This document shows positions 5,549-18,170 of a stretch of DNA of 64,000 bases, one piece after another. Source of the stretch: an uncultured Planctomycetales bacterium (lineage in GTDB: Bacteria > Omnitrophota > Gorgyraeia > Zapsychrales > JANLHA01). The stretch spans positions 21,348 through 85,347 of the forward strand of contig CAYYRJ010000003.1 of the NCBI GenBank assembly GCA_964474085.1, read 5' to 3'. A program made the translations under genes and the position numbers. Each line of letters opens with the position of its first letter. Positions within the stretch are counted from its first letter, which is position 1. The notes below the pieces were generated by a model. It saw nothing but the letters and a program-made list of their open reading frames with translations, was not told where the DNA came from and searched no databases.

Positions 5549-6919
5549 TCACTTAGCTTTAAGCGCGTGCGGTGAAGCGGCGATGATTAAGACATCCAAA
5601 AATTGTCCGGGCTTAAAATTTCCTTTTCCCAAAAGCACAAGATGGCCGCCGTCGGTGCGGCCGACGAAATCATTTTGCAATTTATTGGTCCCCTGCTCAA
5701 CTAAAACATTGAGCGTTTTGCCGATATGAGCGGCATTCTTTTTGTGAGTGATGTCTTTCTGGATATCCTGAAGGCGAATGATGCGTTTCTTTTTGTCTTC
5801 GTCAGAAACATCATCGGGATACTTTTTCGAAGCAATTGTGTTTTTGCGCTCCGAATATTTAAAAATAAAGGCCGCATCAAACTCAACCTGTTGGATAACG
5901 TTGACAGTGTCTTCAAATTCTGCGTCCGTTTCCGTCGGAAAACCAACAATGACATCGGTTGAAAGAAAAATATCCGGACACAGCCGGCGGATTTTGGCGG
6001 CCAGATCGATAAAATCTTTTTGCGTATAGGTGCGGTTCATCAATTCCAAAATGCGATCATTGCCAGCTTGCAGGGGCAAATGAATGTGTTTGCAAACCTT
6101 TGGGTTGTTAGCCACGACGTCGATTAATTTATCAGGAAAATCTTTTGGATGCGGCGAGGTAAAGCGAATACGTTTAATGCCGTCGATTTTACTAACCGCG
6201 TTAAGCAGGTCAGCAAAGTCCCGCGGTTGACTGTCATTGCGAGGAGCCGAAGGCGACGAAGCAATCTCTAGATTTTGTTGTGAATAATCCTTATATGAAT
6301 TGACGTTCTGTCCTAGGAGAGTGACTTGCTGAAAGCCTTCGGCCACAAGGCGTGTCACTTCTTCGACCACGTTTTCAACGGATCGGCTGCGTTCTCGGCC
6401 GCGTGTGTAAGGCACGACGCAAAAGGTACAAAAATTATCGCACCCTCGCATGACAGATACCCATGCGTTGACGCCGGTTTTGTGCTGGGGATAAATGTCC
6501 GAGTAAGTTTCGAATTCCGAAAGCGTCACGTCGAAAGGCTTTTCGCCATGCAATCCCGACTGACGTATCAAATCGCCTAAACGCTTGTAGCTGTCGGGTC
6601 CAGCGATAAAATCAATAGCAAGATTTTCATTGTCCAGCAATTCTTGGCGCAAGTTCGTTGCCATACAACCTAAAATGCCAATGGTAACCGGCTTACCTTC
6701 ACGCTTGTGTCGAATCTCGTGAACGCGTCCGTAAACTTTGCGATGCGCGTTTTCGCGGATGGCACACGTGTTAAGCATCACGACGTCGGCCTGCAACTCA
6801 TCCTTGACGAATTCAAAATTTTCTTTGGCCAAAACGGCACGAATAATTTCCGTATCGGCCTCGTTCATTTGGCAGCCGTAGGTTTCGACAAATATTTTTT
6901 GTTTACCGTGATTTATCAT
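5549..6919 (-). CDS. miaB: tRNA-2-methylthio-N6-dimethylallyladenosine synthase MiaB (radical SAM methylthiotransferase)
   Basis: KIFVETYGCQMNEADTE UPF0004 domain, CDNFCTFCVVP radical-SAM CxxxCxxC, C-terminal TRAM; internal start MINHGKQ gives ~456 aa. Confidence 0.85.
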   Translation of the reverse strand: MINHGKQKIFVETYGCQMNEADTEIIRAVLAKENFEFVKDELQADVVMLNTCAIRENAHRKVYGRVHEIRHKREGKPVTIGILGCMATNLRQELLDNENLAIDFIAGPDSYKRLGDLIRQSGLHGEKPFDVTLSEFETYSDIYPQHKTGVNAWVSVMRGCDNFCTFCVVPYTRGRERSRSVENVVEEVTRLVAEGFQQVTLLGQNVNSYKDYSQQNLEIASSPSAPRNDSQPRDFADLLNAVSKIDGIKRIRFTSPHPKDFPDKLIDVVANNPKVCKHIHLPLQAGNDRILELMNRTYTQKDFIDLAAKIRRLCPDIFLSTDVIVGFPTETDAEFEDTVNVIQQVEFDAAFIFKYSERKNTIASKKYPDDVSDEDKKKRIIRLQDIQKDITHKKNAAHIGKTLNVLVEQGTNKLQNDFVGRTDGGHLVLLGKGNFKPGQFLDVLIIAASPHALKAK

Positions 6920-7028
6920 ATTCTCTGTCATCCCCGAATGTTTTTGTCGGGGATCCATTTTCTGTTTTTGAACCCGGCACTTTTGGAAATGTTCTCCTAG
7001 TTTCTCCTCTGCTGGGGCGCGCTCTCTT

Positions 7029-8348
7029 TTATTCTCTCCAGACCCCCTTAAAATATTCATACGCCTTACGTTTTTGGCGCATCAAAGGATCTGCGCCATT
7101 ACCGTAAGAAAGAATACCCCAATATTCATCATGCATCAGCGGTTGGTTTTCTACCCAATTGCGCCCTCCTGGGTTATGTTCAAATGGTTTGTAATTCATA
7201 TACCAATGATCGGTCCAATGGAAAAGACATGCTCCGATCACATTGCCGCGGCCTTGATTGTGGATCCAACGGTGATGCGCGCTGTTCTTAGAAATATCCT
7301 CCCACGCGACTTTAAAATACCGGTATTGCCGCTCTTCGTCCTCGCCCTTTTTTGAATACGCGAAAGCGCCAAACTCAGAAATAAAGATCGGCCGATCAAA
7401 GATCTCTTTTGTTTTTTCCCAAACAGGGGTGAATTCATACTGACGGTAGGAATTATAAGCAACAATATCCACCGCCGGAGCTAATTTCGCATAATGCTTG
7501 AGCATAACAAAATGCCCATCGTCCCCGTCGCAAATCGCTACGGGATGATCTGGGTCAAGTTCATGGATCATTTCCGCGATCTCCCCGACGAGACTGGCAT
7601 AAGCCTCCGGATGCTGCGGAGTGTTTTGAAATGACCAGGTGGAAATATTATTTTCATTTCCCAGAAGCCACATCAGAACATAGGGTTCATCTTTATGATC
7701 CAGCACCATGGCTTTCACGGATCGTTTAATATTCTCGCGATGTTTTTGGTTGGTATAATCCACCCCTTCTGTCCAGGGCACTCCCGCGCCGATCGTCCAG
7801 GATCCCATAAAATGTCCAACGATCACCCGGATCCCGAATCTTTGGTAGAGCTCCAGCAGGAGTTCTTTGTTAGGCGCGTGATCAAACATATTGCTTTGGT
7901 TCTTGTCGATCCTGTAAAGATCCCCAACAAAAGGATGATTCGATGCAAGATGATAGAGCCTGAGCGTGTTGACCCCCATTTCTTTAAGAAGCGCGAAATC
8001 ACCGGTAACGGGTTCTTCTGGATCACGGAGATTATTTTTGTTCTCATCGACCCATGTTTGATACGCGATGTCATTGATCTCGTCGCCGGTATGGTCAGGA
8101 TCCATCCAATCCTGCTGGGTGGCCTCATCAGGGCTTTCGCCGATATTGACCGGGCCAAAGACGACCCCCTTAATAAAATATGGCTTGCCCTCAACTAATA
8201 ATTGCCAAGTCCCGTCGTCGTATTTGACGGCTTTGACTTTGCCGCCGCGTTGTTCGACAATACTGCGCTCCTGGGCCTGGACAGGGTTAGCCCATAGCAC
8301 TGCGAAAAAGAGCCCATATCCGATAACTTTTATTCCGCACTGTCGCAT
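7029..8348 (-). CDS. secreted glycoside hydrolase, clan GH-A TIM-barrel candidate
   Basis: Signal peptide MRQCGIKVIGYGLFFAVLWANPVQA; LLGNENN (acid/base-like) and FISEFG (nucleophile-like) motifs; AGGAGA RBS 6 nt before the chosen ATG at 8348. Confidence 0.5.
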   Translation of the reverse strand: MRQCGIKVIGYGLFFAVLWANPVQAQERSIVEQRGGKVKAVKYDDGTWQLLVEGKPYFIKGVVFGPVNIGESPDEATQQDWMDPDHTGDEINDIAYQTWVDENKNNLRDPEEPVTGDFALLKEMGVNTLRLYHLASNHPFVGDLYRIDKNQSNMFDHAPNKELLLELYQRFGIRVIVGHFMGSWTIGAGVPWTEGVDYTNQKHRENIKRSVKAMVLDHKDEPYVLMWLLGNENNISTWSFQNTPQHPEAYASLVGEIAEMIHELDPDHPVAICDGDDGHFVMLKHYAKLAPAVDIVAYNSYRQYEFTPVWEKTKEIFDRPIFISEFGAFAYSKKGEDEERQYRYFKVAWEDISKNSAHHRWIHNQGRGNVIGACLFHWTDHWYMNYKPFEHNPGGRNWVENQPLMHDEYWGILSYGNGADPLMRQKRKAYEYFKGVWRE

Positions 8349-8373
8349 AAGAGATCTCCTGCTAACCGTCATT

Positions 8374-8402
8374 CGGAACATTTCCGGCAGTGCCGGGTTC
8401 AC
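8374..8402. repeat. D-family palindromic repeat (GGAACATTTCC + CCGGCNGTGCCGGGTTC), copy D1
   Basis: ggaacatttccggcagtgccgggttcac; same two-hairpin motif recurs at 10471, 11741, 13897, 15061, 16955 and 17512. Confidence 0.6.
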
Positions 8403-8551
8403 TTTATTGTTTTTGGGGAAATATACGCAATCTTTCCGTCTTTCCATACTGCCAGCGAGCGACCAGATTTTTTATGCCGCTCCACAACTTGCCGCACGGC
8501 TTTTTTTAACGCTGTTTCTGCTTTATCCTGCAAGGACAGTCTTTTTTTCAT
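8399..8551 (-). CDS. hypothetical ~50 aa protein translationally coupled to the zeta-like kinase (possible partner/antitoxin)
   Basis: ATG at 8551 overlaps the TGA of the upstream gene (ATGA); translation MKKRLSLQDKAETALKKAVRQVVERHKKSGRSLAVWKDGKIAYISPKTIK; not in the supplied track because it is <60 aa. Confidence 0.4.
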   Translation of the reverse strand: MKKRLSLQDKAETALKKAVRQVVERHKKSGRSLAVWKDGKIAYISPKTIK

Positions 8552-9126
8552 GCTTCTCCTCTGATTGTTAGGAATAAATTATTATCAAAGATCTCAGGGG
8601 AACCATTTTTCTTTTTTGCAATGAGGGCGGGTTTTATTTTTGAATTATCAAACAGCATCCATGAATCCAGTAATGGTTCGTATAATTTAAAGAAATTATT
8701 GATGCTGCGAGAAAAACGCCGTTTCACGTCCAGACTTGGCACATTGTGCCCGCCTTCTAAGACGCGATTTTTGATACGCGCAATTGCCAACCCTGTACTC
8801 GGAATCCATAAAAAGAAAAGATGGATGGCATAACCTTGTGATTTTAAATCTTTGAGTAAACCTGCATAAGATTTTCCTGACAATGTTGTCTCAAATGCAA
8901 AATCGATACGTCGCGCAGAGTAGTCGCTGATTTGCTGCAGAACAAGTTTTCCGGCTTTGATAGCGGCAGCGCGAGGTTCAAACGGTGCCAACCCTAGGGC
9001 AATGAGATCCGCATTAACAAAGTTGTTGCAATGAACATATTGCGGCAAAAACTCTCGAGCGAATGTTGTTTTGCCTGCTCCATTCGGGCCTGCAATAATA
9101 TAAACATTCGGATTATTTTTACTCAT
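8548..9126 (-). CDS. P-loop kinase, zeta-toxin / AAA_33-like family
   Basis: VYIIAGPNGAGKTTFA Walker A at the N-terminus, 192 aa, NADLIA block; resembles zeta toxin-family proteins. Confidence 0.55.
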   Translation of the reverse strand: MSKNNPNVYIIAGPNGAGKTTFAREFLPQYVHCNNFVNADLIALGLAPFEPRAAAIKAGKLVLQQISDYSARRIDFAFETTLSGKSYAGLLKDLKSQGYAIHLFFLWIPSTGLAIARIKNRVLEGGHNVPSLDVKRRFSRSINNFFKLYEPLLDSWMLFDNSKIKPALIAKKKNGSPEIFDNNLFLTIRGEA

Positions 9127-9151
9127 ATATTTTTCCTAAAAATTCTCTTAG

Positions 9152-9198
9152 AGTACTCAAATACTGCACCCTACGGGCAACCGTAGGTTTCGACGTAG
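9152..9198. repeat. U-family conserved palindromic element (short variant), copy U1
   Basis: tactcaaatactgcaccc + cctacgg-gcaa-ccgtagg hairpin + tttcgacg; conserved flanks shared with U2-U5. Confidence 0.55.
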
Positions 9199-9217
9199 AT
9201 TCTTTTATTTTTGATTA

Positions 9218-9841
9218 TCATAGTTCTTTATGCCGATTTGGAGGCAAGAGACTCTTAATGCATAAAATTAAGAGTAACAAAATTCCCAGAATAGTAAAAC
9301 CTGTTGTTATGTATAAGAAAGATACTCTGTATTCTTTAATTAATAAAAAATAAAGGGCTGTCATCAATGTGCAGAATTTTATCAATAAAATAACAGTTGT
9401 ATCTTTCTTAAAATTTGTAGTATATACCTCAAGATTCTTAATATTATTTTTTCTAGTATTGACCCGATTCTTGATTGATTCAAAATTCCGAAGATTGGTT
9501 TGATGAACTCTGAGTTCAGCTTCTAAACTAGCCATATCTTCTTGAGGGTCAGTTTTTCTTTTTTCTATTTTATGAATGATCGTCTTTATCTCGCTAGCCT
9601 TTATTTCGTGCGTATTTATAATTTTGTCCGCTTCTTGAGACAGCTCTTCGTTTGTATAAAACTCGTATCCCGAGAAATTGTTTACATGGCTTAGCAATCT
9701 TATGAAAACTCCCCATTTCTTTTCCATGTTATCGCCAATTACTTGGAGATGGTAAACGGCAAAAACTGCGGAAATGCCAATCATTGCTGCTAAAGATTGT
9801 ACAATAGTGCTGTAGGTCCAATAATAATGTTCTGGTTCCAT
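9218..9841 (-). CDS. hypothetical membrane protein (N- and C-terminal TM helices, central coiled-coil)
   Basis: Hydrophobic segments SLAAMIGISAVFAVY and ILLIKFCTLMTALYFLLI...GFTILGILLLLILCI; no recognisable family. Confidence 0.35.
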   Translation of the reverse strand: MEPEHYYWTYSTIVQSLAAMIGISAVFAVYHLQVIGDNMEKKWGVFIRLLSHVNNFSGYEFYTNEELSQEADKIINTHEIKASEIKTIIHKIEKRKTDPQEDMASLEAELRVHQTNLRNFESIKNRVNTRKNNIKNLEVYTTNFKKDTTVILLIKFCTLMTALYFLLIKEYRVSFLYITTGFTILGILLLLILCIKSLLPPNRHKEL

Positions 9842-9882
9842 ATTTTACTTAAAAGTTAAATTTTGGAATAATAGAGACGGTT

Positions 9883-10131
9883 TTAGTTAATATTTACGGC
9901 GGGTTTTCCGTCTAAATAGAGTGTGTCGGGGCAAAAATCTTGACCGTGAGGCCATTCGACACTACCTAAGAAAGGACGGACGGCATTAAAAAGTTTTAAA
10001 TCCTTCAATTCTCTAAATATTCCTTTATCTAAATAAGGCTTCACATCAAACACTTTCCTCTCCCCATTATCAAAGACAAGGGTTAAGGTGTAATCGGGAT
10101 TAGGTTTTACGTCTTTTATTCTGGGATTCAT
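9883..10131 (-). CDS. DUF2442 domain protein
   Basis: 82 aa; PNPDYTLTLVFDNGERKVFDVKPYL...WPHGQDFCPDTLY matches the DUF2442 pattern; directly downstream of the DUF4160 gene (known pair). Confidence 0.65.
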   Translation of the reverse strand: MNPRIKDVKPNPDYTLTLVFDNGERKVFDVKPYLDKGIFRELKDLKLFNAVRPFLGSVEWPHGQDFCPDTLYLDGKPAVNIN

Positions 10132-10132
10132 A

Positions 10133-10402
10133 CTATTTTAATGGGTCAATTTTAAATACTTCTTGGCCGTTAGCCGCTAATTGCCAATCGGCCATTAATT
10201 CATCTTTATGAATTTCAACCCATGCTTGAGCAAGTTTTAATTTCGCTGGGTTTAATTTCCCTGCTAAAACAGCACCGTCAGGGATCGAAAGAACCGCTTC
10301 TTCATCTTGATAACGGACATGGATGTGGGGTGCTTTATGCTCTTTGTTATCAAAGAAATAAAGCGAAACGATAATTCCGTAAAACATTGAGATGACTGGC
10401 AT
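10133..10402 (-). CDS. DUF4160 domain protein
   Basis: MPVISMFYGIIVSLYFFDNKEHKAPHIHVRYQ matches DUF4160 N-terminal consensus (MP.IS.F.GI.I.MY..DH.PPHFHA.Y). Confidence 0.65.
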   Translation of the reverse strand: MPVISMFYGIIVSLYFFDNKEHKAPHIHVRYQDEEAVLSIPDGAVLAGKLNPAKLKLAQAWVEIHKDELMADWQLAANGQEVFKIDPLK

Positions 10403-10470
10403 ATCTTTTCCTTTTTGGTCTAGTATAACATCTTGTTAAGTGATTTCAAAAAATAACCTTTCCCAATTAT

Positions 10471-10500
10471 CCGGAACATTTCCGGCGGTGCCGGGTTCGC
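10471..10500. repeat. D-family palindromic repeat, copy D2
   Basis: ccggaacatttccggcggtgccgggttcgc, followed by T-rich run on plus strand. Confidence 0.6.
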
Positions 10501-10519
10501 TTAAAATTTTTATTACTTT

Positions 10520-10809
10520 TTTACTCCGCATGCCAATTCCGAGCGGCATGAACTATACCGGTAATCCAAATTTCGTCTTTATTAATCCGATACATAAGCC
10601 GATAGGCGCCGTAAATGATTTCGCGACAGTTTTTCATTTTTTATTTCGGAGATAATGCGTCCAGATTCAGGAAATTTCTCGAGGCGGTCGGTCATTTCGA
10701 TGATGCGAGTTACAAATAATGCGGCTTGATCTACAGAATCGCGCTCAATATATTCGGCAATGGATTCAATATCGTTTAGTGCGGAGGGTGCCCAAATTAT
10801 TTTACCCAT
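10520..10809 (-). pseudogene. ParE/RelE-family toxin, copy 1, disrupted by +1 frameshift in an A6 run (coding strand)
   Basis: N-terminal 58 aa identical or near-identical to the intact copy at 11782-12069. Coding-strand A6 here vs A5 in copy 2 shifts the frame; the conserved C-terminal coding (IYGAYRLMYRIN...VHAARNWHAE) continues out of frame down to 10520. Confidence 0.6.
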
Positions 10810-10979
10810 TTACGAAGTCTCTTTTTGGCGTCCTCGTGAGGGATGCCCTTTTTTTGTTTTATTTCTTGCTCGCCATGCTGAAATTTGGCATGAACATACA
10901 AAGCATGGATAATATCATCCATCGTCGCTTTTTGCGGTAGAGAATCAACAACATTTTTGGCAATTTCTTTTACGGTCAT
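10797..10979 (-). CDS. putative antitoxin, addiction-module-component-like (copy 1)
   Basis: MTVKEIAKNVVDSLPQKATMDDIIHALYVHAKFQHGEQEIKQKKGIPHEDAKKRLRKWVK; overlaps toxin start; 100% nucleotide identity with copy 2 across 10801-11076. Confidence 0.5.
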   Translation of the reverse strand: MTVKEIAKNVVDSLPQKATMDDIIHALYVHAKFQHGEQEIKQKKGIPHEDAKKRLRKWVK

Positions 10980-11053
10980 AGTTCCCTCCATAAATTTGGT
11001 ATTAAAGAAAGTATACCATAGCATCGGTCAATTTTAAGCGTAGATTTTCCCCA

Positions 11054-11108
11054 AAAACTCCCCGAAAGTCCTCAAATAGTGACCCCAATGGCCAACCATA
11101 AGTTTCCA
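11054..11108. repeat. U-family conserved element, copy U2 (variant right flank)
   Basis: agtcctcaaatagtgacccc ... ccaaccataagtttccacaaaaatc; left flank identical to U3. Confidence 0.55.
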
Positions 11109-11205
11109 CAAAAATCTTTTTTGGTAATATGTTATTTATCATAATGTTATGAAAAGTCAGATTCTTTCAACGGTTAAAACTTTTAGATGAACGAATATGA
11201 CTTCT

Positions 11206-11649
11206 CTATTTTCTGCCAATCTCAGCAAGTTCCCTGGAAGCGATAGAATTACTCGGGTCAATGATTCTAACTTTCTCAAAATATTTTATTGCCTCGGCAA
11301 AATTACCAAGCGTCTTATTGCAAGCCCCCGCAGCAATGTTAGGAGCGATTTTATCAGGGCTCAACTGTGCCGCTGCTTCGAAATAGGCGACTGCATCCTG
11401 TGGTCTCTGGGTTTTAAAATAAAGTGTGCCGATAGCCATGTTAATAGCGTATTTATTATTGATGGTCTTAGGATCTGTGGCAACATCTTGTAAAATTAAC
11501 GTGTGTGCTTGTAAATAATTTTTTAATGCCTGTTCAACGTTTTGTTCCTTCTCAAACTTTATGCCTAACTGATAATATGAAAGATAATCCGCAGAGTTAG
11601 CTGTTAATGTACTAAAAATCATAATAACCAAAATGGCAACGAGTCGCAT
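11206..11649 (-). CDS. secreted TPR-repeat protein
   Basis: Signal peptide MRLVAILVIMIFSTLTANSA; TPR-like YLQA...AYFEAAAQLSPD...AIKYFEKVRIIDPSN. Confidence 0.45.
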   Translation of the reverse strand: MRLVAILVIMIFSTLTANSADYLSYYQLGIKFEKEQNVEQALKNYLQAHTLILQDVATDPKTINNKYAINMAIGTLYFKTQRPQDAVAYFEAAAQLSPDKIAPNIAAGACNKTLGNFAEAIKYFEKVRIIDPSNSIASRELAEIGRK

Positions 11650-11740
11650 GTCTTCTCCTTTTGTGTTAGCTTTTATCCTTAAAGCGATTCATGACTAGAA
11701 TCAACGGGATAATTAAGGCCAATTTTAAAATCGGAAAAAT

Positions 11741-11775
11741 TTGGAACATTTCCAAATGTGCCGCAAAATGTCGTT
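11741..11775. repeat. D-family repeat variant, copy D3 (GGAACATTTCC-AAATGTGCC-GCAAAATGTCG)
   Basis: ttggaacatttccaaatgtgccgcaaaatgtcgtttaatt; near-identical copy at 15061-15095. Confidence 0.55.
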
Positions 11776-11781
11776 TAATTT

Positions 11782-12069
11782 CTACTCCGCATGCCAATTT
11801 CGAGCTGCATGAACAATGCCAGTAATCCAAATTTCGTCTTTATTTATGCGATACATAAGCCGATAGGCGCCGTAGATTATTTCGCGGCAATTCTTAATTT
11901 TTATTTCAGGGATAATGCGTCCGGATTCAGGAAATTTTTCTAGGCGGTCGGTCATTTCGATGATGCGCGTCACAAACAAGGCGGCTTGGTCTACAGAATC
12001 GCGTTTAATATATTCGGCAATGGATTCGATATCGTTTAGCGCGGAGGGTGCCCAAATTATTTTACCCAT
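11782..12069 (-). CDS. type II toxin, ParE/RelE family (intact copy 2)
   Basis: 95 aa MGKIIWAPSALNDIESIAEYIKRDSVDQAALFVTRIIEMTDRLEKFPESGRII...ITGIVHAARNWHAE; downstream of and overlapping the small antitoxin gene. Confidence 0.7.
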   Translation of the reverse strand: MGKIIWAPSALNDIESIAEYIKRDSVDQAALFVTRIIEMTDRLEKFPESGRIIPEIKIKNCREIIYGAYRLMYRINKDEIWITGIVHAARNWHAE

Positions 12070-12239
12070 TTACGAAGTCTCTTTTTGGCGTCCTCGTGAG
12101 GGATGCCCTTTTTTTGTTTTATTTCTTGCTCGCCATGCTGAAATTTGGCATGAACATACAAAGCATGGATAATATCATCCATCGTCGCTTTTTGCGGTAG
12201 AGAATCAACAACATTTTTGGCAATTTCTTTTACGGTCAT
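12057..12239 (-). CDS. putative antitoxin, addiction-module-component-like (copy 2)
   Basis: Identical to copy 1; start MTVKEI preceded by GGAGGG RBS and an extended -10 (TGGTATACT). Confidence 0.55.
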   Translation of the reverse strand: MTVKEIAKNVVDSLPQKATMDDIIHALYVHAKFQHGEQEIKQKKGIPHEDAKKRLRKWVK

Positions 12240-12269
12240 AGTTCCCTCCATAAATTTGGTATTAAAGAA

Positions 12270-12278
12270 AGTATACCA
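12270..12278 (-). promoter_or_regulatory. extended -10 promoter element (TGGTATACT) for antitoxin-ParE operon copy 2; identical element upstream of copy 1 (about 11010-11018)
   Basis: Reverse complement of agtatacca = TGGTATACT about 31 nt upstream of the antitoxin ATG with GGAGGG RBS between. Confidence 0.35.
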
Positions 12279-12323
12279 TAGCATCGGTCAATTTTAAGCG
12301 TAGATTTTCCCCAAAAACTCCCC

Positions 12324-12384
12324 GAAAGTCCTCAAATAGTGACCCCCCGCCACAAAGCGTTGGCGGGCAGGTATCGGTCAATCG
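12324..12384. repeat. U-family conserved element, copy U3 (abuts Fic-family gene stop)
   Basis: agtcctcaaatagtgaccccccgccacaaagcgttggcgggcaggtatcggtcaatcg; imperfect palindrome cccgccaca/gttggcggg. Confidence 0.55.
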
Positions 12385-13377
12385 TTAATTCAATTTATTA
12401 ATCAAGTTTACCACTAAAGCCGTAATCACATCTTTTTCTTTAGGTTGGCTCTCTGCGATCATTAATGTAATCGCGACCAAGGCATTATCGGCGATTCGTT
12501 TGCTGCCATCGACTTTATAAAGGATTTTATTCCTATCCAGAAACCAAACAAATAATGTGGCAGCAATACGTTTATTCCCATCTGAAAACGCATGATTTTT
12601 GACAACTAAATAAAGTAGATTTGCGGCTTTTTCTTCAATGCTCGGGTACAAATCTTTAGTGCCAAATGTCTGGTAAATTGCTCCCAGCGCACTTTTAAAT
12701 GAAGCATCTTTTTCCTGTCCAAATAAATCACTACCACCAAATTTTTGACGCATTTGTTTGATAAGTCGAATGCCTTCATCATAACTCAATTGATACGATT
12801 CTTTCGCCGTCGCTGATTTGATTTCAATACGGCCATGGTCATAATCGTCCAAAACATCCAAACCATAGCTATAATCACGGAGAACCTCAAATAACCCAGT
12901 CGTTTCATCACTCGTCAAAGCTTTCCGTTGGCTTAAATCAACAAGCATTTTCACGGCATTTTGAAGAGTTTTTAAACTTGCCGTGTGTTCTTTAAGCCGT
13001 TTGTCGTTAAGGGTATAACCTTGAATCAAGTGTTGCTTTAGAATATTGGTTGCCCAGATACGGAACTGGGTGGCTTTAGAGGAATTGACACGATAACCAA
13101 CTGATATGATGACATCAAGATTATAAAGTTGTATCGGCTTGTCTGAATTAGCAATGTGCATTTTTTGCACATTGCTTTCTCGCTCTAACTCTTTATTTTC
13201 AAATATATTGCGTAAATGTTTAGTGATAACACTGCGTTCGGTCAAAAACAAGTTCGCCATTTGAGCTTGTGTGAGCCACACAGACTCGTTTTTAAATTGA
13301 ACTTCAACTGTAATTTGAGATCCTCTGGGACGAAAAATAACTAGATTTTGAATATTCTCTGAATTGATTTTTTTCAT
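12385..13377 (-). CDS. RhuM/Fic/DOC family protein
   Basis: N-terminal RhuM-type block (VWLTQAQMANLF...YNLDVIISVGYRVNSSKATQFRIWAT) and C-terminal Doc-type motif HAFSDGNKRIA; 330 aa. Confidence 0.7.
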   Translation of the reverse strand: MKKINSENIQNLVIFRPRGSQITVEVQFKNESVWLTQAQMANLFLTERSVITKHLRNIFENKELERESNVQKMHIANSDKPIQLYNLDVIISVGYRVNSSKATQFRIWATNILKQHLIQGYTLNDKRLKEHTASLKTLQNAVKMLVDLSQRKALTSDETTGLFEVLRDYSYGLDVLDDYDHGRIEIKSATAKESYQLSYDEGIRLIKQMRQKFGGSDLFGQEKDASFKSALGAIYQTFGTKDLYPSIEEKAANLLYLVVKNHAFSDGNKRIAATLFVWFLDRNKILYKVDGSKRIADNALVAITLMIAESQPKEKDVITALVVNLINKLN

Positions 13378-13465
13378 AAATGCACCCCTCCTTGTTTATT
13401 CACTAGGGGTGTCGTGAACATGTTTATATAATTACTCACAATGAATTTGTTTTAAAAATTCCGAT

Positions 13466-13537
13466 AAAGTCCTCAAATACTGCACCCCTGCCACAAAGCG
13501 TTGGCGGGCAGGCATCGGTCAACCGTAGGTTTCGACG
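13466..13537. repeat. U-family conserved element, copy U4 (full-length variant)
   Basis: aagtcctcaaatactgcacccctgccacaaagcgttggcgggcaggcatcggtcaaccgtaggtttcgacg. Confidence 0.55.
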
Positions 13538-13539
13538 AA

Positions 13540-13588
13540 ACACTCACACAGACGTTTTACGGTAACACTCACACAGACGTTTTACGGG
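13540..13588. repeat. direct tandem repeat, 2 x 24 bp (acactcacacagacgttttacgg) separated by 1 nt
   Basis: Read directly from sequence; lies immediately beside U4 in a gene-free 550 bp stretch. Confidence 0.7.
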
Positions 13589-13896
13589 AAATAAACAATT
13601 ACATAAACTTACAAAACAATTCCGGCAATTGTTGGCGAAGTTATTTATTAGATATCTTATAAAATTTTGAACACTTCGACGGTGCCTGGTTCACCCGCTT
13701 TTGGCGGGCTTGTCCGCCGATGGCGAGTTCACGTTTGAAGGTGACACTTTTGGAAACGTTCTCTTCTGTCTTTCTTCTGTCTCCCAATTTTCCCGATATC
13801 GGAAGAATTGGGTGAAGCTCTCCCTTTCGCTTCAGGAAAAAATCCGAAACATTTCCCCATGCTTCGCTAAAATATTTTTGTTTTAGCTTCGCAGGG

Positions 13897-13918
13897 CAAG
13901 CGCCGGTGCCGGGTTCGC
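13897..13918. repeat. D-family repeat, copy D4 (GC hairpin module; the GGAACATTTCC-like module sits about 30 bp upstream at about 13850)
   Basis: cgccggtgccgggttcgcc; preceded by ccgaaacatttcccc. Confidence 0.5.
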
Positions 13919-13924
13919 CAGCTT

Positions 13925-14098
13925 TTATTTAAGTGCAAACCGAGTGTTAACGACCAGCATTTTCTTCCATTTGGCGTAAGCTTTTTTATCAAAAGTCTCG
14001 CGCAAATTAAACTTAACGAATTCTAAATAATCATCCATCGAAAGAATCTTTGTACTCGATGCGGCTGTTTTTATAATTGGCAGGTTGAGTTTTTTCAT
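13925..14098 (-). CDS. hypothetical 57 aa protein translationally coupled to the nucleotidyltransferase-fold gene
   Basis: ATG at 14098 overlaps upstream TGA (ATGA); MKKLNLPIIKTAASSTKILSMDDYLEFVKFNLRETFDKKAYAKWKKMLVVNTRFALK. Confidence 0.4.
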   Translation of the reverse strand: MKKLNLPIIKTAASSTKILSMDDYLEFVKFNLRETFDKKAYAKWKKMLVVNTRFALK

Positions 14099-14634
14099 TT
14101 TAGAGCCTCCAGTATTTTTTGATACAGATCGGCTGTCCCGTATTTTAAACAGAGTTCTTTGAACTTTTTGTCCTTGATATCGACTTGATTTATTCTTATC
14201 AAGTTGATAATGTCTGGTAAATCTTTAGTCAGGCGAATTTTGGTATTAAACTTTATCGAATGCAGTTTTAAAGCGATTAAATGTAATAGCGATGGAACGA
14301 CAAGTTTCTGACCTGCGATGGTGATTTTTTTACCTTCGTTCTTGATCTTTGTCAGGGTTTCATCGTCGACAAACATAAAATCGACATCTAAAAGTGATAA
14401 ACGACTGCTTTGGAGTTGGGCAAAGTTTTCCTGAATCAGGGCTTTCTTGTATCCAGCTTTTTCTAAGAGTCCGGCTATTTTATCAAAGTCTGCTTTGGTG
14501 ATTAAGAAATCTACATCCGCTGTTTGTCGGGTTACGCGGTAATAATTTATCGCGAAGCCCCCGATTAAAACACATGACACTCCCTCTTCGTGTGTTAAAT
14601 CAGAAATAAGATGAAAAACCGAACGCTGCGTCAT
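14095..14634 (-). CDS. nucleotidyltransferase-fold (pol-beta superfamily) protein, possible TA/abortive-infection-type component
   Basis: LIGGFAINYYRVTRQTADVDFLI fits hG[GS]-x9-13-DhD NTase signature; 179 aa; U element upstream. Confidence 0.45.
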   Translation of the reverse strand: MTQRSVFHLISDLTHEEGVSCVLIGGFAINYYRVTRQTADVDFLITKADFDKIAGLLEKAGYKKALIQENFAQLQSSRLSLLDVDFMFVDDETLTKIKNEGKKITIAGQKLVVPSLLHLIALKLHSIKFNTKIRLTKDLPDIINLIRINQVDIKDKKFKELCLKYGTADLYQKILEALK

Positions 14635-14675
14635 GGCAATTCTTTTTCTTATAAAGTTCTCTAAAATTTCCCTAT

Positions 14676-14752
14676 AGTCCTCAAATAGTAAACCCCTGCT
14701 ACAAAGCGTTGGCGGGCAGGCATCAGCTAACCGTAAGTTTTCACAAAAATCG
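14676..14752. repeat. U-family conserved element, copy U5
   Basis: tagtcctcaaatagtaaacccctgctacaaagcgttggcgggcaggcatcagctaaccgtaagttttcacaaaaatcg. Confidence 0.55.
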
Positions 14753-14838
14753 TTTTTTTGACTTGATTTGTCATAATTTTTCAGTCATTGCGAGCGCTTT
14801 TTGCGAAGCAATCGCCTTGTATCCTAGGCGGTCAACCG

Positions 14839-15024
14839 TCATTTACAGCCTTGATAACTCCATGGTTCACCAGTTTTTTCATCTATACCATCCAAAACAA
14901 CATAGCGCTGACCTGGGGGGCATTGCATTCTCATTTCGTTTCTAGCTACGCAATAAAGAACAATCAATAACAAAATCAATAGGAATAATAACATTGCCTT
15001 TTTCTTCATAATGATTTTCCTCAA
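14839..15024 (-). CDS. small secreted protein (61 aa, signal peptide, 4 Cys)
   Basis: MRKIIMKKKAMLLFLLILLLIVLYCVA then CPPGQRYVVLDG...YQGCK; weak, no homologue recognised. Confidence 0.3.
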   Translation of the reverse strand: MRKIIMKKKAMLLFLLILLLIVLYCVARNEMRMQCPPGQRYVVLDGIDEKTGEPWSYQGCK

Positions 15025-15060
15025 TCCAGTGGACGGTTAGTCGAGAAAATGAAGACGTTT

Positions 15061-15125
15061 TGTACATTTCCAAATGTGCCTCAAAATGTCGTTTAATTTT
15101 TACTCCGCATGCCAGTTCCGAGCGG
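15061..15125 (-). pseudogene. remnant of a ParE/RelE toxin 3' end (last 12 codons, GIVHAARNWHAE*) fused to a D-family repeat
   Basis: tttactccgcatgccagttccgagcggcatgaacaat translates on minus strand to GIVHAARNWHAE-stop, identical to the C-terminus of ParE copy 2; adjacent gtacatttccaaatgtgcctcaaaatgtcg matches D3. Confidence 0.6.
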
Positions 15126-15368
15126 CATGAACAATCCCCGTTAATCAGGGACGGAGCCCAATTGTTTTTGTTAGATTATGGGAAGGATTATAGCGTTTTT
15201 GCTCTAAAAAGTAAAACGTTAGGGACACGGATTAAAAATAGTGGCTATATGAATTGTTTATATGTTATCTTTGGTCTAGAAGCTATTTTTAGACACATGG
15301 TTTTTTAAATGTGCTTTAGATATTGTGAATTTGGAGTCATAAAGAGTTATATTTTCGGAGATAAAATT

Positions 15369-16946
15369 ATGAGAAATTTATTTCGATTTCTTAAGAAAAT
15401 CGTTTGGATCGAGATAGTTGTCATTGGTATTTTTATAGCACTTCCGAAGAGTGGATTAGCTCAAAACCCTTTGAATGGAACATTTCTCGAGATAGGTTAT
15501 TTAACGACAACCAATATTTCTGCGATTTTAGATGAGCTTAAAAGCTTTGACGAATCTGTTGTTATTATCCAGGCCCTTCGTCAGCGAAACTGCTCAAGCG
15601 CTAGCTACACTTGGGCCAATGGTCTTCCACAGACAACAAGTGAGATTCAGAAAATCATAGACGCCTTACTGAGTAAGGCAAAGGAAAATGGAATTTCTGT
15701 ATATTTGGGAACGAGTTTGTTTTTAGATTACTGGAGCTGCTCCTCGTTCTTTAATGAAAGTAACACGAAATTGGCAATCAGCGATCTCGCAGCGTTGGAT
15801 CCTGTCTTGACTGTCGCGCAAAAGTATTCCTCTTTTGCTGGTTGGTATATTTCTGAAGAGCCAGCTATTGCAAGCTGGTCCGATATTGAGTTTAATAGTT
15901 CAATTCCCTATTATAGGGGCATCGCAAAAGCGCTTAAAGCCAAGGCTAACAAACCTATAATTGTTTCGCCCTATTTAAATGGTGCCGTAAAGGCGAATAT
16001 AACTCCGGACACGCTTGCAGTGCGGGCGCTAGATTTTAAGAATAGAACGGATATTGATATTGAAGCTTGGCAAGATAGTGTCGGGACTGACGCGATCAAG
16101 CTTACTTCAAAAGCGCCGGAGAGGGCAACAGAGTACAGCCTAGATCAGTATTTTATGAAATTATCAGAGAAGATTGGACGAGGCTGCTTATGGGCAGTCC
16201 CGGAAATGTTCAATTTCGGGGTTAAGCAAGGCAAGAGTTTGAGTAATGACTTCTTTGGAGGGTATTATCATTCAGCCTCACTAATGCGTTTAAATCAACA
16301 GATGTCCTTGGAGTCCAGCGCTTGGGTCTCGGCACGGGTAGCCTGGACTAATCTAAGCCACATGACCAAACAAAACTTTACTTATGGCACGATGCCTGAA
16401 GCGGTTCGAATGTTTGAAACTTATAAGGCTGTTTATGGACTTGGCAACCGAATTTTACGACCTGCATCGTATAAGTGGATAACTCCGCCAAATTCTAATT
16501 ATAATGACTTTGCTAATAATAAATTGTTCGATTCTATTACAGGAGATCCTAAATATTTAACAGACACGGCGTGGGTTGGAATTCCTGCCTGGACTTATAC
16601 TTCTAATGATCTGCCTGGTGTTCTTCCTGATGTTCAATTCGGCGGGAAGGCGGAGGTTCAAATAAACTTTTCATTGCCTCAATATGTTGATTGGGTCGGG
16701 GTGCATTCAGGAAACTTCAATAAAGCGGGCGTCTATTTTCCTATGTTAATGGATATATTCTGCCAAGCGACTACTACAAGTCCGTGGAAAACTCTCGGAA
16801 GTTGGGGTAGCATGGTAAGTCAGGATGACAGTGAATATGTTCTTTCCAACATTCGTCCCCTGGATGCGCAGTGTTCTTCTATTCGAATCAGGTTAGAGCG
16901 TAAAAGCTGGATTTTCCTTAGCGAAGTGGAAATTGTTGGGCATTAA
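15369..16946 (+). CDS. secreted GH-like (DUF4434-like TIM-barrel?) protein with C-terminal discoidin/F5-8 type C-like domain
   Basis: Signal peptide MRNLFRFLKKIVWIEIVVIGIFIALPKSGLAQ; C-terminal SIRIRLERKSWIFLSEVEIVG resembles discoidin domain ends; family call is tentative. Confidence 0.4.
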   Translation: MRNLFRFLKKIVWIEIVVIGIFIALPKSGLAQNPLNGTFLEIGYLTTTNISAILDELKSFDESVVIIQALRQRNCSSASYTWANGLPQTTSEIQKIIDALLSKAKENGISVYLGTSLFLDYWSCSSFFNESNTKLAISDLAALDPVLTVAQKYSSFAGWYISEEPAIASWSDIEFNSSIPYYRGIAKALKAKANKPIIVSPYLNGAVKANITPDTLAVRALDFKNRTDIDIEAWQDSVGTDAIKLTSKAPERATEYSLDQYFMKLSEKIGRGCLWAVPEMFNFGVKQGKSLSNDFFGGYYHSASLMRLNQQMSLESSAWVSARVAWTNLSHMTKQNFTYGTMPEAVRMFETYKAVYGLGNRILRPASYKWITPPNSNYNDFANNKLFDSITGDPKYLTDTAWVGIPAWTYTSNDLPGVLPDVQFGGKAEVQINFSLPQYVDWVGVHSGNFNKAGVYFPMLMDIFCQATTTSPWKTLGSWGSMVSQDDSEYVLSNIRPLDAQCSSIRIRLERKSWIFLSEVEIVGH

Positions 16947-16954
16947 GGGGTAAA

Positions 16955-16997
16955 TCCAGAATATTTCTGGGAGTGCCACCCGCCGGTGTCGGATTCG
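16955..16997. repeat. D-family-like repeat variant, copy D7
   Basis: ccagaatatttctgg (hairpin) + cgccggtgtcggattcgcc immediately after the stop of the plus-strand gene. Confidence 0.4.
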
Positions 16998-17209
16998 CCC
17001 GCTGATTATTTACAAATCTCTTTAAATATTTAATTCTAAAATTCAATAAGACGTTTTATGCAACCCACTCATATCTATTAACATACAAAAGTATTTCCAG
17101 GATTCCTGGAATATTTTTGTAAATTATAGCTATGCTTAATTTTGATAAAACGTCTTTTAGCTAAAAGCCCAGAACATAAAATTTTTAAATCATACATCAC
17201 TTAAATCTT

Positions 17210-17271
17210 GGATCCCTGCTTTCGCAGGGATGACACTGCCTCTTTTGTCATTGCCGCGAAAGCGGGAATCC
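17210..17271. repeat. 62 bp imperfect palindrome (two 26 bp arms each itself a hairpin) in convergent intergenic region; likely bidirectional terminator or structured RNA
   Basis: ggatccctgctttcgcagggatgaca ... tgtcattgccgcgaaagcgggaatcc; arm 2 is about 80% reverse complement of arm 1. Confidence 0.5.
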
Positions 17272-17511
17272 ACTTTTCAAATTGCTCCTTCATCTGACTC
17301 AATTTGCACGAAAGGAGGCTTGCCTAAATAATTGGGACCACTTGTAGCAGAAGTCAAGAAATCCTAAAGGTTTATTTCAGAAGCGGTCTCTGTTGCTCCT
17401 TTTGTTTCTTCACCGTTAAAACCGATAGGCATTTTTAGTGCTTCAATTTCATATCGTTTTGAAGGACTGCGTCACGGAATATATAAAAGTTCTTTCTCGT
17501 CAATGTGTTAT

Positions 17512-17540
17512 TGGAACGTTTCCGGCGGTGCCGGGTTCAG
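17512..17540. repeat. D-family repeat, copy D6
   Basis: ttggaacgtttccggcggtgccgggttcag, followed by inverted ggaaatgttcc. Confidence 0.55.
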
Positions 17541-17633
17541 CTTGAATATGGCACGTTTGGAAATGTTCCGATTTATTCTCAGAAACATTGTTTAGGCGTA
17601 AGTTTTAAAGGGTGCTCGTCAGGAAATCTTTCA

Positions 17634-18053
17634 TTACCCTTGTATGCGGGAGATCAAATTATTGACTCGTTGTGCGACTTCTTTGGCTAACTCGTCTTCT
17701 GGACGGACGACAATTTCTCTTTTGGCTCCGGTGATAAGGATTTCGTCAATTTCTAAAATCAATCGGCCAAACGGATTGACTAAATCATAGGCAATTTTGA
17801 AAGCTAACACCATAAAAATAAACAAGGAAATAAAAATAAAACAAACCGTCGCATAAAACCATTGGGCAATGCAAGGGCCAACCAGTAAATAAGATTTGTT
17901 TAAAATCAGAGAACTGACTTGAGTATTCATTAAATAAACAACAATCAGCAGAGCTGCGCTAATCGCAAACAGTGGTGCTGTGATTAAAAAAATGATCTGC
18001 ATTTGGTACTTGTTATTGAGTGCGAAAATATTGCGTTTGATTTGTGAAGTCAT
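17634..18053 (-). CDS. hypothetical membrane protein (2-3 TM helices)
   Basis: IIFLITAPLFAISAALLIVVYL and WFYATVCFIFISLFIFMVLAF hydrophobic segments. Confidence 0.35.
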   Translation of the reverse strand: MTSQIKRNIFALNNKYQMQIIFLITAPLFAISAALLIVVYLMNTQVSSLILNKSYLLVGPCIAQWFYATVCFIFISLFIFMVLAFKIAYDLVNPFGRLILEIDEILITGAKREIVVRPEDELAKEVAQRVNNLISRIQG

Positions 18054-18170
18054 TGACGCTCCTTTGGCAAGATTGAAAATTTTGTAACCTGATTATTGGC
18101 TACTCATAATTTTGAATTATAGTAGCTTTTGAGGTTAAAAGCAACGCCAAGGCTGCGAATTCCAGAAAGT

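Follow-up and report, generated by a model that had tools for sequence, protein, structure and literature searches.

Introduction

The dusA-specific islands and prophages integrate in the 5′ end of a gene for transfer RNA (tRNA) modification and replace that end (Farrugia et al. 2015, PMC4482086). In the tycheposon islands of Prochlorococcus, older elements are displaced inward as new ones integrate in succession, and partial tRNAs remain (Hackl et al., 10.1101/2020.12.28.424599). Further systems for comparison are the accretion of cis-mobilizable elements (CIMEs) and of integrative and conjugative or integrative and mobilizable elements (ICEs and IMEs; review PMC5704250), and the tandem ssrA islands of Dehalococcoides (PMC3146451). 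Here, we analyse a stretch of 64,000 nucleotides (the window; contig CAYYRJ010000003.1, positions 21,348 to 85,347) from an uncultured bacterium of the Omnitrophota, in which an array of small, integrase-less cassettes adjoins the tRNA-modification gene miaB. We propose that this array probably grew as cassettes integrated one after another, in a site-specific (Campbell-type) manner, at a single fixed position in the 5′ end of miaB.

As in the dusA islands, the target is a tRNA-modification gene, a replacement 5′ end keeps that gene intact, and a displaced 5′ remnant is found at the far junction. The dusA elements, however, are large and carry their own adjacent DusA-type tyrosine integrase (PMC4482086), whereas the units described here measure 0.1–2.3 kb, lack an integrase, are stacked at least five deep and target miaB. 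With tycheposon islands the array shares a single attachment site, scattered partial copies of the target, and turnover of cargo between close relatives in small genomes; tycheposons use tRNA or tmRNA targets and tyrosine recombinases, while here the target is a protein-coding start and the arrays hold no recombinase. ARAGORN, run on six array-bearing loci (L019, L004, L007, L011, L016 and L015) and not on the window, found no tRNA. Like CIMEs and ssrA islands, the array appears to consist of non-autonomous elements flanked by attachment (att) sites and stacked in tandem at the site of an integrase encoded elsewhere. In those systems a cognate integrase-bearing element occupies the same site, whereas here such a partner was not found and the units are much smaller.

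Sedentary integrons and clusters of attC sites lacking integron-integrases (CALINs) offer a different comparison. Common to them and to the array are unidirectional, short, mostly orphan open reading frames (ORFs), frequent toxin-antitoxin (TA) cassettes, shuffling between genomes, a conserved 3′ recombination module on each cassette and, presumably, a recombinase encoded outside the cassettes. Unlike integrons, the array has no IntI, no attI and no folded attC, and its module is a double-strand-type homology to the start of a host gene, which brings a promoter and an N-terminus. In an integron, a site lies downstream of every ORF; in the array, a repeat made of a host-gene fragment and an arm (U) lies between units, and a second repeat (D) lies within them. 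The array is integron-like in logic, and it is neither an integron nor a CALIN. It is also distinct from known accretion systems in four ways: its target at the first Cys codon of miaB, its very small integrase-less units, its conserved arm and its stacking depth. A MiaB-like gene, rimO, appears as an integration target in Polaromonas in a single literature mention, and a full-text search of the literature returned nothing on such arrays in Omnitrophota.

Results

The U repeat carries the start of miaB

A first-pass annotation, made from the letters of the window alone, had described two recurring repeat families, U and D. Both hold up against chance, with five copies of U (all at 9153–14695) where 0.00 are expected and ten matches to D where 0.18 are expected. 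What that annotation missed is that U carries the 5′ end of miaB, so that the array can be read as accretion at a fixed attachment site inside this gene. In gene orientation, the 5′ half of U is a copy of the miaB start, comprising the ATG and about 17 codons (MIxKxKxIFVETYG), often with 50–110 nt of miaB upstream DNA before it. The copy ends at TAYGGY|TG, where MiaB has its first conserved Cys codon, and is followed by a short spacer, TGRCCGAT, and a 50-nt arm (U-right).

The working miaB gene lies 2.3 kb beyond the U copies, at 5549–6919 on the minus strand, where it is both the target and the right border of the array. It is intact, reaching 456 bits with the NCBIfam MiaB equivalog model TIGR01574 (cutoff 355) and carrying the Pfam domains UPF0004, Radical_SAM and TRAM. 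When a 20-nt miaB core (TTTGTCGAAACCTACGGYTG) was searched with up to three mismatches, four matches were found in the window against 0.01 expected, one in miaB itself and three in U copies; a fourth, more diverged miaB fragment in U lies at 14727–14774.

In 20 of 23 cases, fragments outside real miaB genes retain the start codon with no stop codon before the junction, translating as MIxKPKQTIFVETYG or MINNILPKKIFVETYG. All 23 break after TAYGGY, and one degenerate copy in locus L061 breaks after TACGAC. At least five junction types diverge right after TAYGGY, namely TGRCCGATGGGG... (U-right), ACTGATTTC..., TGCTCCCAG..., TAGCTAT... and TGGCCATTGGCCAC..., while miaB itself continues with TGCCAAATGAAC. 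Besides U-right, these types comprise three others and a 64-nt hairpin unit, which one contig carries in two places as an "empty" cassette of about 95 nt. The same junction is used even in L061, whose miaB is only 79% identical.

U-right has the consensus GATGGGGTCACTATTTGAGGACTTTGGGGGAATTTTTGGAAAAAATTTAT over 29 copies from 12 contigs, with about 20 positions at least 90% conserved, while the cargo proteins are 70–90% identical; the arm is under strong constraint. The junction also contains a weak, imperfect inverted repeat, CCTACGG-CTGA-CCGATGG, which is compatible with a recombinase core site and proves nothing. A gene-start fragment ending in TAYGGY and followed by GGGGTCACTATTTGAGGACTTTGGGG would provide a precise search signature for similar arrays and for their recombinase.

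The five U copies of the window, all on the minus strand, differ in form. The copy at 9122–9221 is short, with a miaB fragment at 9178–9221 (MIIKNKRIYVETYGC), a 6-nt spacer and U-right at 9122–9171. The copy at 11037–11203 combines upstream DNA (11143–11203), a miaB fragment (11093–11142, MINNILPKKIFVETYGW) and U-right (11037–11086). The remaining three are long forms with an extra GC-rich hairpin between spacer and arm. One of them (12297–12383) has no miaB fragment and abuts the stop codon of a Fic gene, another (13438–13540) has a partial miaB fragment at 13517–13540 and U-right at 13438–13487, and the last (14646–14774) has the diverged fragment at 14727–14774 (MTNQVKKTIFVKTYG*) and U-right at 14646–14695.

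The upstream part of the second copy bears directly on how the array grew. The segment running from 11203 to 11093, just downstream of a gene for a tetratricopeptide repeat (TPR) protein, matches the upstream region and start of the working miaB in L008 (86%) and L012 (77%), and is the old native miaB promoter and N-terminus, stranded inside the array. The working gene of the window has a different upstream region. Its attR-like junction (6869–7028, minus strand; assigned from sequence and a D match) consists of miaB codons 1–17 (6869–6919) and an upstream region with a hairpin at about 6928–6955 and an inverted D at 6969–6994; in relatives, miaB is preceded by a different upstream region, of which the window contains a displaced copy at 11143–11203. 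The longest miaB ORF extends 141 nt upstream of the real start (6919–7060) and overlaps the end of the neighbouring glycosidase-like gene; this extension, which reads through the inverted D copy, is an ORF-calling artefact. The hairpin at 6928–6955, just upstream of the miaB start, has the form GGATCCC(N)...(N)GGGAT and occurs twice more at 17205–17262, in non-coding DNA near the left border of the island; these hairpins may represent a third small repeat family.

In different genomes, the module of miaB upstream region, ATG and about 17 codons, stopping at TAYGGY|TG, is joined to unrelated cargo and begins a few nucleotides after the cargo stop codons. It behaves as the portable 3′ recombination module with which each cassette ends. 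Most units begin with the U-right arm, and a functional miaB always adjoins the array.

Several other identities were considered for U. Its identification as attC or another structured single-stranded site was rejected, as it has no RYYYAAC/GTTRRRY boxes and folds weakly, in agreement with the first-pass view that the repeats are not canonical attC sites. DNA folds of the five copies on both strands gave z values from +0.3 to −2.5, mostly no better than shuffles, and the RNAalifold consensus of 15 U copies is a 7-pair hairpin at the junction (−4.75 kcal/mol, covariation term −0.06). An Rfam scan of 6500–18200 returned one chance match and no known RNA family. U-right was not flagged as a sigma-70 promoter by a promoter scan, and the ParDE cassettes have a promoter-like site of their own downstream of it. 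A phage origin was also rejected, since the U and D patterns matched IMG/VR only without the surrounding repeat context and at about the chance rate. XerCD/dif-type sites (28 bp, 11-6-11, ...ATAA-N6-TTAT...) were sought in the U and D consensus by inspection only, and no such motif was seen.

The GC-rich hairpins are inserted exactly between TGRCCGAT and U-right (for example GCCTGCCCGCCAACGCTTTGTGGCGGGG and GCTTGCCCGCCTCTGGCGGGGG), with the stem kept and the loop varying. They occur in the window at 12347–12383, 13488–13516 and 14696–14724, and elsewhere at L008:50–84, L010:5378–5400 and 6595–6620, and in L016, L018 and L019. Such a hairpin might disable the junction and fix the cassettes in position; alternatively, it may itself be a small insertion element. 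Additionally, a 237-aa ORF at L007:5426–6139 starts at an ATG within the spacer and U-right arm (CCGATGGGGTCACTATTTGAGGAC), which suggests that the arm of some cassettes may also supply the start of the cargo gene.

Arrays at miaB in other Omnitrophota

When GTDB species representatives were scanned for the U arm, 15 loci came up, 13 of them from nine contigs of metagenome-assembled genomes (MAGs) of Candidatus Omnitrophota and two of them chance matches; some array-bearing Omnitrophota MAGs are labelled Planctomycetales. The arm copies are clustered, and a miaB start fragment precedes almost every one. A metagenome scan for U added only two further loci. In every fetched locus that holds miaB, U lies directly upstream of it and in the same orientation (the Omnitrophota MAG contigs L005, L007, L008, L009 and L012, and later the metagenome contig L065). 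Tandem units at this one site are marked by five U junctions in the window, and L004+L007 have as many as six.

The relatives share a conserved frame, with a TPR gene and a gene for a 139-aa protein (p139) on one side and miaB, nadA and a hydrolase gene on the other, and the U arrays between p139 and miaB carry different cargo. By synteny with them, the variable region of the window runs from the miaB start to the stop of p139 (6,919–17,633), an interval of 10.7 kb. The first-pass borders of 8349–15308 were therefore too narrow, D copies lying beyond them, and the GH2-like gene and the DUF4434 gene, which it took for flanks, fall inside the island. Neither gene has a homologue in any fetched relative locus. 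Both of these glycosidase-like genes are cargo of the variable region, which illustrates how flanking-gene annotation can mislead.

Within this frame, individual cassettes recur in other orders. In L018 (CAZWOH010000028.1), the closest relative by flanking proteins (97%), the zeta kinase cassette (window 9171 to 8371) is present at 94.7% nucleotide identity, the match beginning at U-right and ending at D, and content and order are otherwise different. The NTase cassette (14695 to 13905) is found in L007 at 84.6%, the ParDE cassette is 87–88% identical in nucleotides to those in L010 and L013, and RhuM-Fic homologues occur in five relative loci, with U-right directly after the gene in all three loci that cover its end. 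The zeta, ParDE, NTase and RhuM-Fic cassettes are thus shuffled among genomes, which differ in cargo and order rather than keeping the same genes in conserved synteny. On metagenome contigs from assemblies that also hold window-identical pieces, ParDE is followed by a different cassette, and contigs from co-assembled metagenomes differ in cassette order. The arrangement of the island itself was found again at 99–100% identity on independent contigs of other assemblies, which excludes an assembly artefact.

Two relatives show junctions of particular interest. In L010 (CAYNSM010000048.1, NadA 94% identical), the distance from p139 to miaB is 3.9 kb, the GH2-like and DUF4434 genes are missing, and the far left end of the array, about 240 nt after p139, has a displaced miaB start; it is there that the integration model places the oldest junction. 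The contig JACKFI010000013.1 has a direct repeat of 100 nt, with one mismatch between its copies, that consists of 48 nt of upstream DNA, the ATG and 17 codons and ends at GGCTG; one copy stands before a U-right arm and the other before the working miaB, with three cassettes between them. The distant miaB loci L061–L063 (79% identity) have no U-right, and L061 has one displaced miaB start with the same junction. The array at a fixed miaB-start site is common to a clade of Omnitrophota and turns over fast. SET-domain proteins are also encoded among the small genes upstream of miaB (L010:5619–6104, L061:8202–8714 and L062:3236–3718), in two of these cases in genomes that have no U.

The D palindrome, a probable companion of the cassettes

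The D repeat has the core GYGAACCCGGCACNNNNGGAAATGTTCCGRAT and, in the zeta, ParDE and NTase modules, lies 0–25 nt past the stop codon; it is inverted after the GH2-like gene and also follows the DUF4434 gene. Minus-strand copies occur at 8371–8402 (GTGAACCCGGCACTGCCGGAAATGTTCCGAAT), 10469–10500 (GCGAACCCGGCACCGCCGGAAATGTTCCGGAT), 11740–11768 (a variant, GCGGCACATTTGGAAATGTTCCAAAT), 15058–15141 (preceded by the remnant of a third ParE C-terminus) and 16959–16995 (a long variant directly after the DUF4434 stop codon). Outside the first-pass borders, D is found at this last position, inverted at 6969–6994 between the GH2-like gene and miaB, and as an inverted pair at 17508–17572; the matches themselves cover 16959–16977, 6976–6994 and 17514–17568. 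The pair, listed on neither strand, marks the left border of the variable region and forms a hairpin of about 60 nt (−15.6 kcal/mol, z = −4.4); window homology with L010 stops beside it, at 17576. Inverted doublets also occur at 13677–13761 and at L018 1680–1740.

Rather than being spread uniformly, all ten D and all five U matches fall in 16.5% of the window, a fraction that also holds most of its non-coding DNA, and none falls in the other 53 kb. Within the island, D sits inside cassettes, between the TA module and further cargo, and not between all cassettes. The zeta cassette stops matching L018 precisely where D ends, which makes D a further breakpoint for module exchange.

Like repetitive extragenic palindromic (REP) sequences and their hairpin-forming doublets (REPINs), D is a short extragenic palindrome downstream of genes, occurring as singlets and as inverted doublets that form long hairpins. 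REP/REPIN families are dispersed over the genome in high copy number and have an associated REP-associated tyrosine transposase (RAYT); within the window, D is confined to the island, with no RAYT nearby and no Y1 transposase. On the most economical reading, D would be a terminator- or REPIN-like palindrome that travels with cassettes. In the D hairpin, 70% of cells pair and register 0 is best, with every measure within the shuffled range. A derivation of D from the miaB core, or mimicry of it, was rejected, since its local alignments to miaB and U did not exceed those of shuffled sequences (p = 0.08–0.96).

An IS200-like Y1 transposase gene with 24-nt flanking inverted repeats lies at L061:14314–14997, between the hydrolase and metW genes, where the window has no such insertion. 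It was rejected as a RAYT for D, because its flanking repeats are unrelated to D. A D-like match (GGCAGTCCCGGAAATGTTC) within the DUF4434 coding sequence (16193–16211, plus strand), encoding AVPEMF, may be chance or a trace of the origin of D.

Search for a recombinase

The first-pass statement that no integrase is present was borne out in the window by Pfam and tblastn. Pfam detected no recombinase domain in 40 window ORFs or in 30 ORFs of relative arrays, and tblastn with 16 tyrosine recombinases gave nothing below E = 0.05 in the window and 20 Omnitrophota loci, remnants included. A recurrent array protein acting as a hidden recombinase was also rejected, since an all-against-all BLAST of array ORFs shows no recurrence beyond Fic, ParDE, TPR proteins and a further pair of small genes. 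In the window and the arrays of relatives, no cognate integrase lies beside the att site; the sole candidate is found in the metagenome contig L019. There, an element comprising Xis, integrase, LexA and restriction-modification genes begins about 110 nt after a miaB fragment inside the array. Its integrase scores 67 bits with the integron-integrase model (cutoff 265) and is not an integron integrase.

Homologues of this integrase at L021:7308–11179 and L050:2842–6518 are found about 2 kb downstream of a tRNA-Met gene that neighbours divIC. The interval from the tRNA to the Xis-integrase pair contains different small ORFs, and the pair is followed by defence cargo (AbiE, type I restriction-modification and a reverse transcriptase). 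This locus may be a second accretion hotspot.

Proposed integration at miaB and its alternatives

These observations suggest the following course of array growth. A circular cassette with a joined site of about 150–200 nt, made of the miaB 5′ module and U-right, would recombine with the start of the chromosomal miaB. The resident 5′ end would be pushed leftward, and the old 5′ end together with U-right would form the U repeat (attL), while the miaB copy of the cassette would become the new promoter and N-terminus of the gene (attR); since the cassette copy supplies a new 5′ end, the gene would stay intact. In keeping with dusA-type integration, the junction is fixed within the 5′ coding region, a displaced 5′ remnant lies at the distal junction, and the equivalog-grade miaB has an upstream region that differs from the displaced copy; as in accretion, att-flanked units without recombination genes stand in tandem at one site. 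The arrays, that of L019 aside, hold no recombinase, so one acting in trans, most likely a tyrosine recombinase, is inferred. TA modules right after U-right would stabilise the array against deletion between direct repeats, and D palindromes would serve as terminators or insulators and, secondarily, as points at which modules are broken and reshuffled. Support is good for the class of mechanism, but not for the enzyme or for the role of D.

Several points weigh against repeated site-specific integration. No recombinase is tied to the miaB site, and the closest homologues of the L019 integrase (84–89% identity) lie near tRNA-Met with no miaB fragment nearby, so that its position in the array may be coincidental; it was set aside as the miaB-specific enzyme and kept as a lead only. 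Several cassette left ends have no U-right, so integration can do without one conserved arm, and some exchange may have been driven by homology. No miaB fragment is present in the left third of the island (15142–17572), which contains an inverted gene, and part of the island arose by other rearrangements. The role proposed for D finds no support in covariation of its hairpin, which is not above shuffled controls. The evidence consists of assembled contigs, with circular intermediates and empty sites not among the observations, and relatives were compared through 8-kb pieces of loci, a limited view of their genomes beyond miaB.

The most serious alternative, although an unlikely one, is RecA-dependent homologous recombination, for example after DNA uptake, exchanging cassettes through the 100–200-nt miaB-start/U repeats and miaB itself, with no dedicated recombinase and with first duplications made by rare illegitimate events. 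The repeat units are long (100–160 nt), copies in one genome are almost identical, some module boundaries coincide with D repeats, and both the left ends lacking U-right and the lack of a recombinase in or beside any array but one fit this view. It fails, however, to explain a junction at the identical nucleotide, after TAYGGY, in at least five unrelated types, including genomes with 79%-identical miaB, and the 50-nt U-right is far better conserved across genomes than neighbouring sequence, which points to recognition by a protein. We consider it less likely still that the array is the decayed remains of several autonomous elements (prophages, ICEs or IMEs), each having lost its own miaB-specific integrase, so that the cassettes were never mobile themselves. 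Good documentation exists for tandem accretion with subsequent decay (10.1101/2020.12.28.424599; PMC3146451; PMC5704250), L019 has an integrase-bearing element inside its array, and gene remnants do occur, such as the ParE C-terminus at 15100–15141 and a frameshifted ParE. Nevertheless, no integrase pseudogenes or fragments were found in the window, the 20 Omnitrophota loci or the 30 relative-array ORFs (Pfam), the units are only 0.1–2.3 kb, the same small cassettes are intact in different genomes with intact U-right arms, and the cargo-free unit of about 95 nt is present twice in one contig.

The two remaining explanations are very improbable. A generic defence or TA island, whose repeats would be ordinary genome-wide REP/REPIN sequences unrelated to its formation, would account for the palindromic, extragenic nature of D with its REPIN-like inverted pairs, and a Y1 transposase gene is present in one related contig. 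Yet within the window the repeats are confined to the island, U accompanies miaB wherever a fetched relative locus includes this gene, and the Y1 transposase has flanking repeats that bear no relation to D. Least probable of all is a CALIN, an integron array without integrase in which U or D would be divergent attC sites served by an IntI encoded elsewhere. The resemblance noted in the first-pass annotation was real as to cassette-array behaviour, given the unidirectional short ORFs, mostly orphan or TA, with repeats between them, and the inverted D pair of about 64 nt has GGAAC...GTTCC ends. The integron identity itself did not survive. U has no R″/R′ boxes, most of its copies fold no better than shuffles, and it holds a gene fragment, unlike attC sites; D stands inside cassettes and not between all of them; and there is no intI in the window, the sole integrase seen, that of L019, falling far below the integron cutoff. 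Known attC sites are imperfect hairpins of about 57–141 nt with extrahelical bases, and single D copies, at about 30 nt, lie below the lower limit of that range.

A bolder version of repeated site-specific integration, which we advance only tentatively, is that Omnitrophota carry a self-contained capture platform analogous to integrons and unrelated to them. The first miaB codons, as the fixed insertion site, would correspond to attI, and the cassette site of about 200 bp, composed of a portable miaB promoter and N-terminus and the 50-nt arm, to attC, and a dedicated recombinase encoded elsewhere in the genome would insert, excise and reshuffle single-gene cassettes. There is a substantial chance that the array is such an independent integron-like capture system. 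If integration at miaB is the correct reading, the array would be a second, independent route to integron-like cassette arrays, in an uncultured phylum. With the insertion site inside a conserved housekeeping gene, each incoming cassette would have to bring a working miaB promoter and N-terminus, and hence selection on miaB may police the integrity of the site.

Gene content of the island

All genes between 8399 and 15024 are on the minus strand, and ORF calls and Pfam families match those listed at first pass, which had described a modular, unidirectional accessory array rich in addiction modules and carrying gene remnants; this description stands. Next to miaB, the GH2-like secreted glycosidase gene (7029–8348, minus strand; Pfam Glyco_hydro_2_C; 439 aa on independent contigs) is cargo between the forward D at 8371–8402 and the inverted D at 6969–6994. 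It is followed by the zeta-like kinase (8548–9126; Pfam Zeta_toxin, 1.1e-10) and its downstream 50-aa ORF (8399–8551), which together span 8399–9126 and form one cassette with U-right and D. Further cargo at 9218–10402 comprises a 207-aa membrane orphan, DUF2442 (9883–10131) and DUF4160 (10133–10402), assigned by Pfam. A TPR protein of 147 aa (Pfam) is encoded at 11206–11649.

Where two ParE-antitoxin pairs had been listed, one is intact (11782–12284, with ParE at 11782–12069, Pfam ParE_toxin 2.2e-19, and the antitoxin ORF upstream), and the other (10518–11024) is a 94%-identical duplicate in which ParE (10518–10809) is frameshifted. The duplication covers the whole U-right-ParD-ParE unit (10518–11086 against 11782–12346, offset 1260 bp, 94% identity); the frameshift in the lower copy lies near codon 57, and of a third ParE only the C-terminal remnant at 15100–15141 is left. 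As in type II TA systems, cargo toxin-family domains occur with small adjacent ORFs: ParE_toxin has a 75-aa ORF upstream and Zeta_toxin its 50-aa ORF downstream, an atypical order, while a Fic/DOC domain is fused to RhuM. The antitoxin ORFs of the island have no family match. The RhuM-Fic/DOC gene (12385–13377; Pfam) is a candidate defence gene, and PADLOC, a check proposed at first pass, gives it a strong match to the candidate defence family PDC-S23 (8.7e-133).

Farther left on the minus strand, the segment at 13541–13918 is non-coding debris, with a D split by an insert (13842–13918), a degenerate inverted D pair (13677–13761) and a 25-nt tandem duplication (13539–13588). In this last, the unit AACACTCACACAGACGTTTTACGG is doubled in perfect register directly before a truncated miaB fragment. 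The NTase-fold gene (14095–14634; Pfam NTP_transf_5) and its 57-aa partner form one cassette at 13925–14634, and a 61-aa orphan with a hydrophobic N-terminus and no Pfam family is encoded at 14839–15024. The DUF4434 gene (15309–16946, plus strand; Pfam DUF4434) is the sole inverted unit of the island. Beyond it, p139 (17634–18053, minus strand) is the left flank common to relatives, with 94% amino acid identity in L010 and 77% in L016. G+C content at 9001–16000 is 34–40%, against 45–47% in the adjacent 4–9 kb, and parts of the remaining window are also below 40%.

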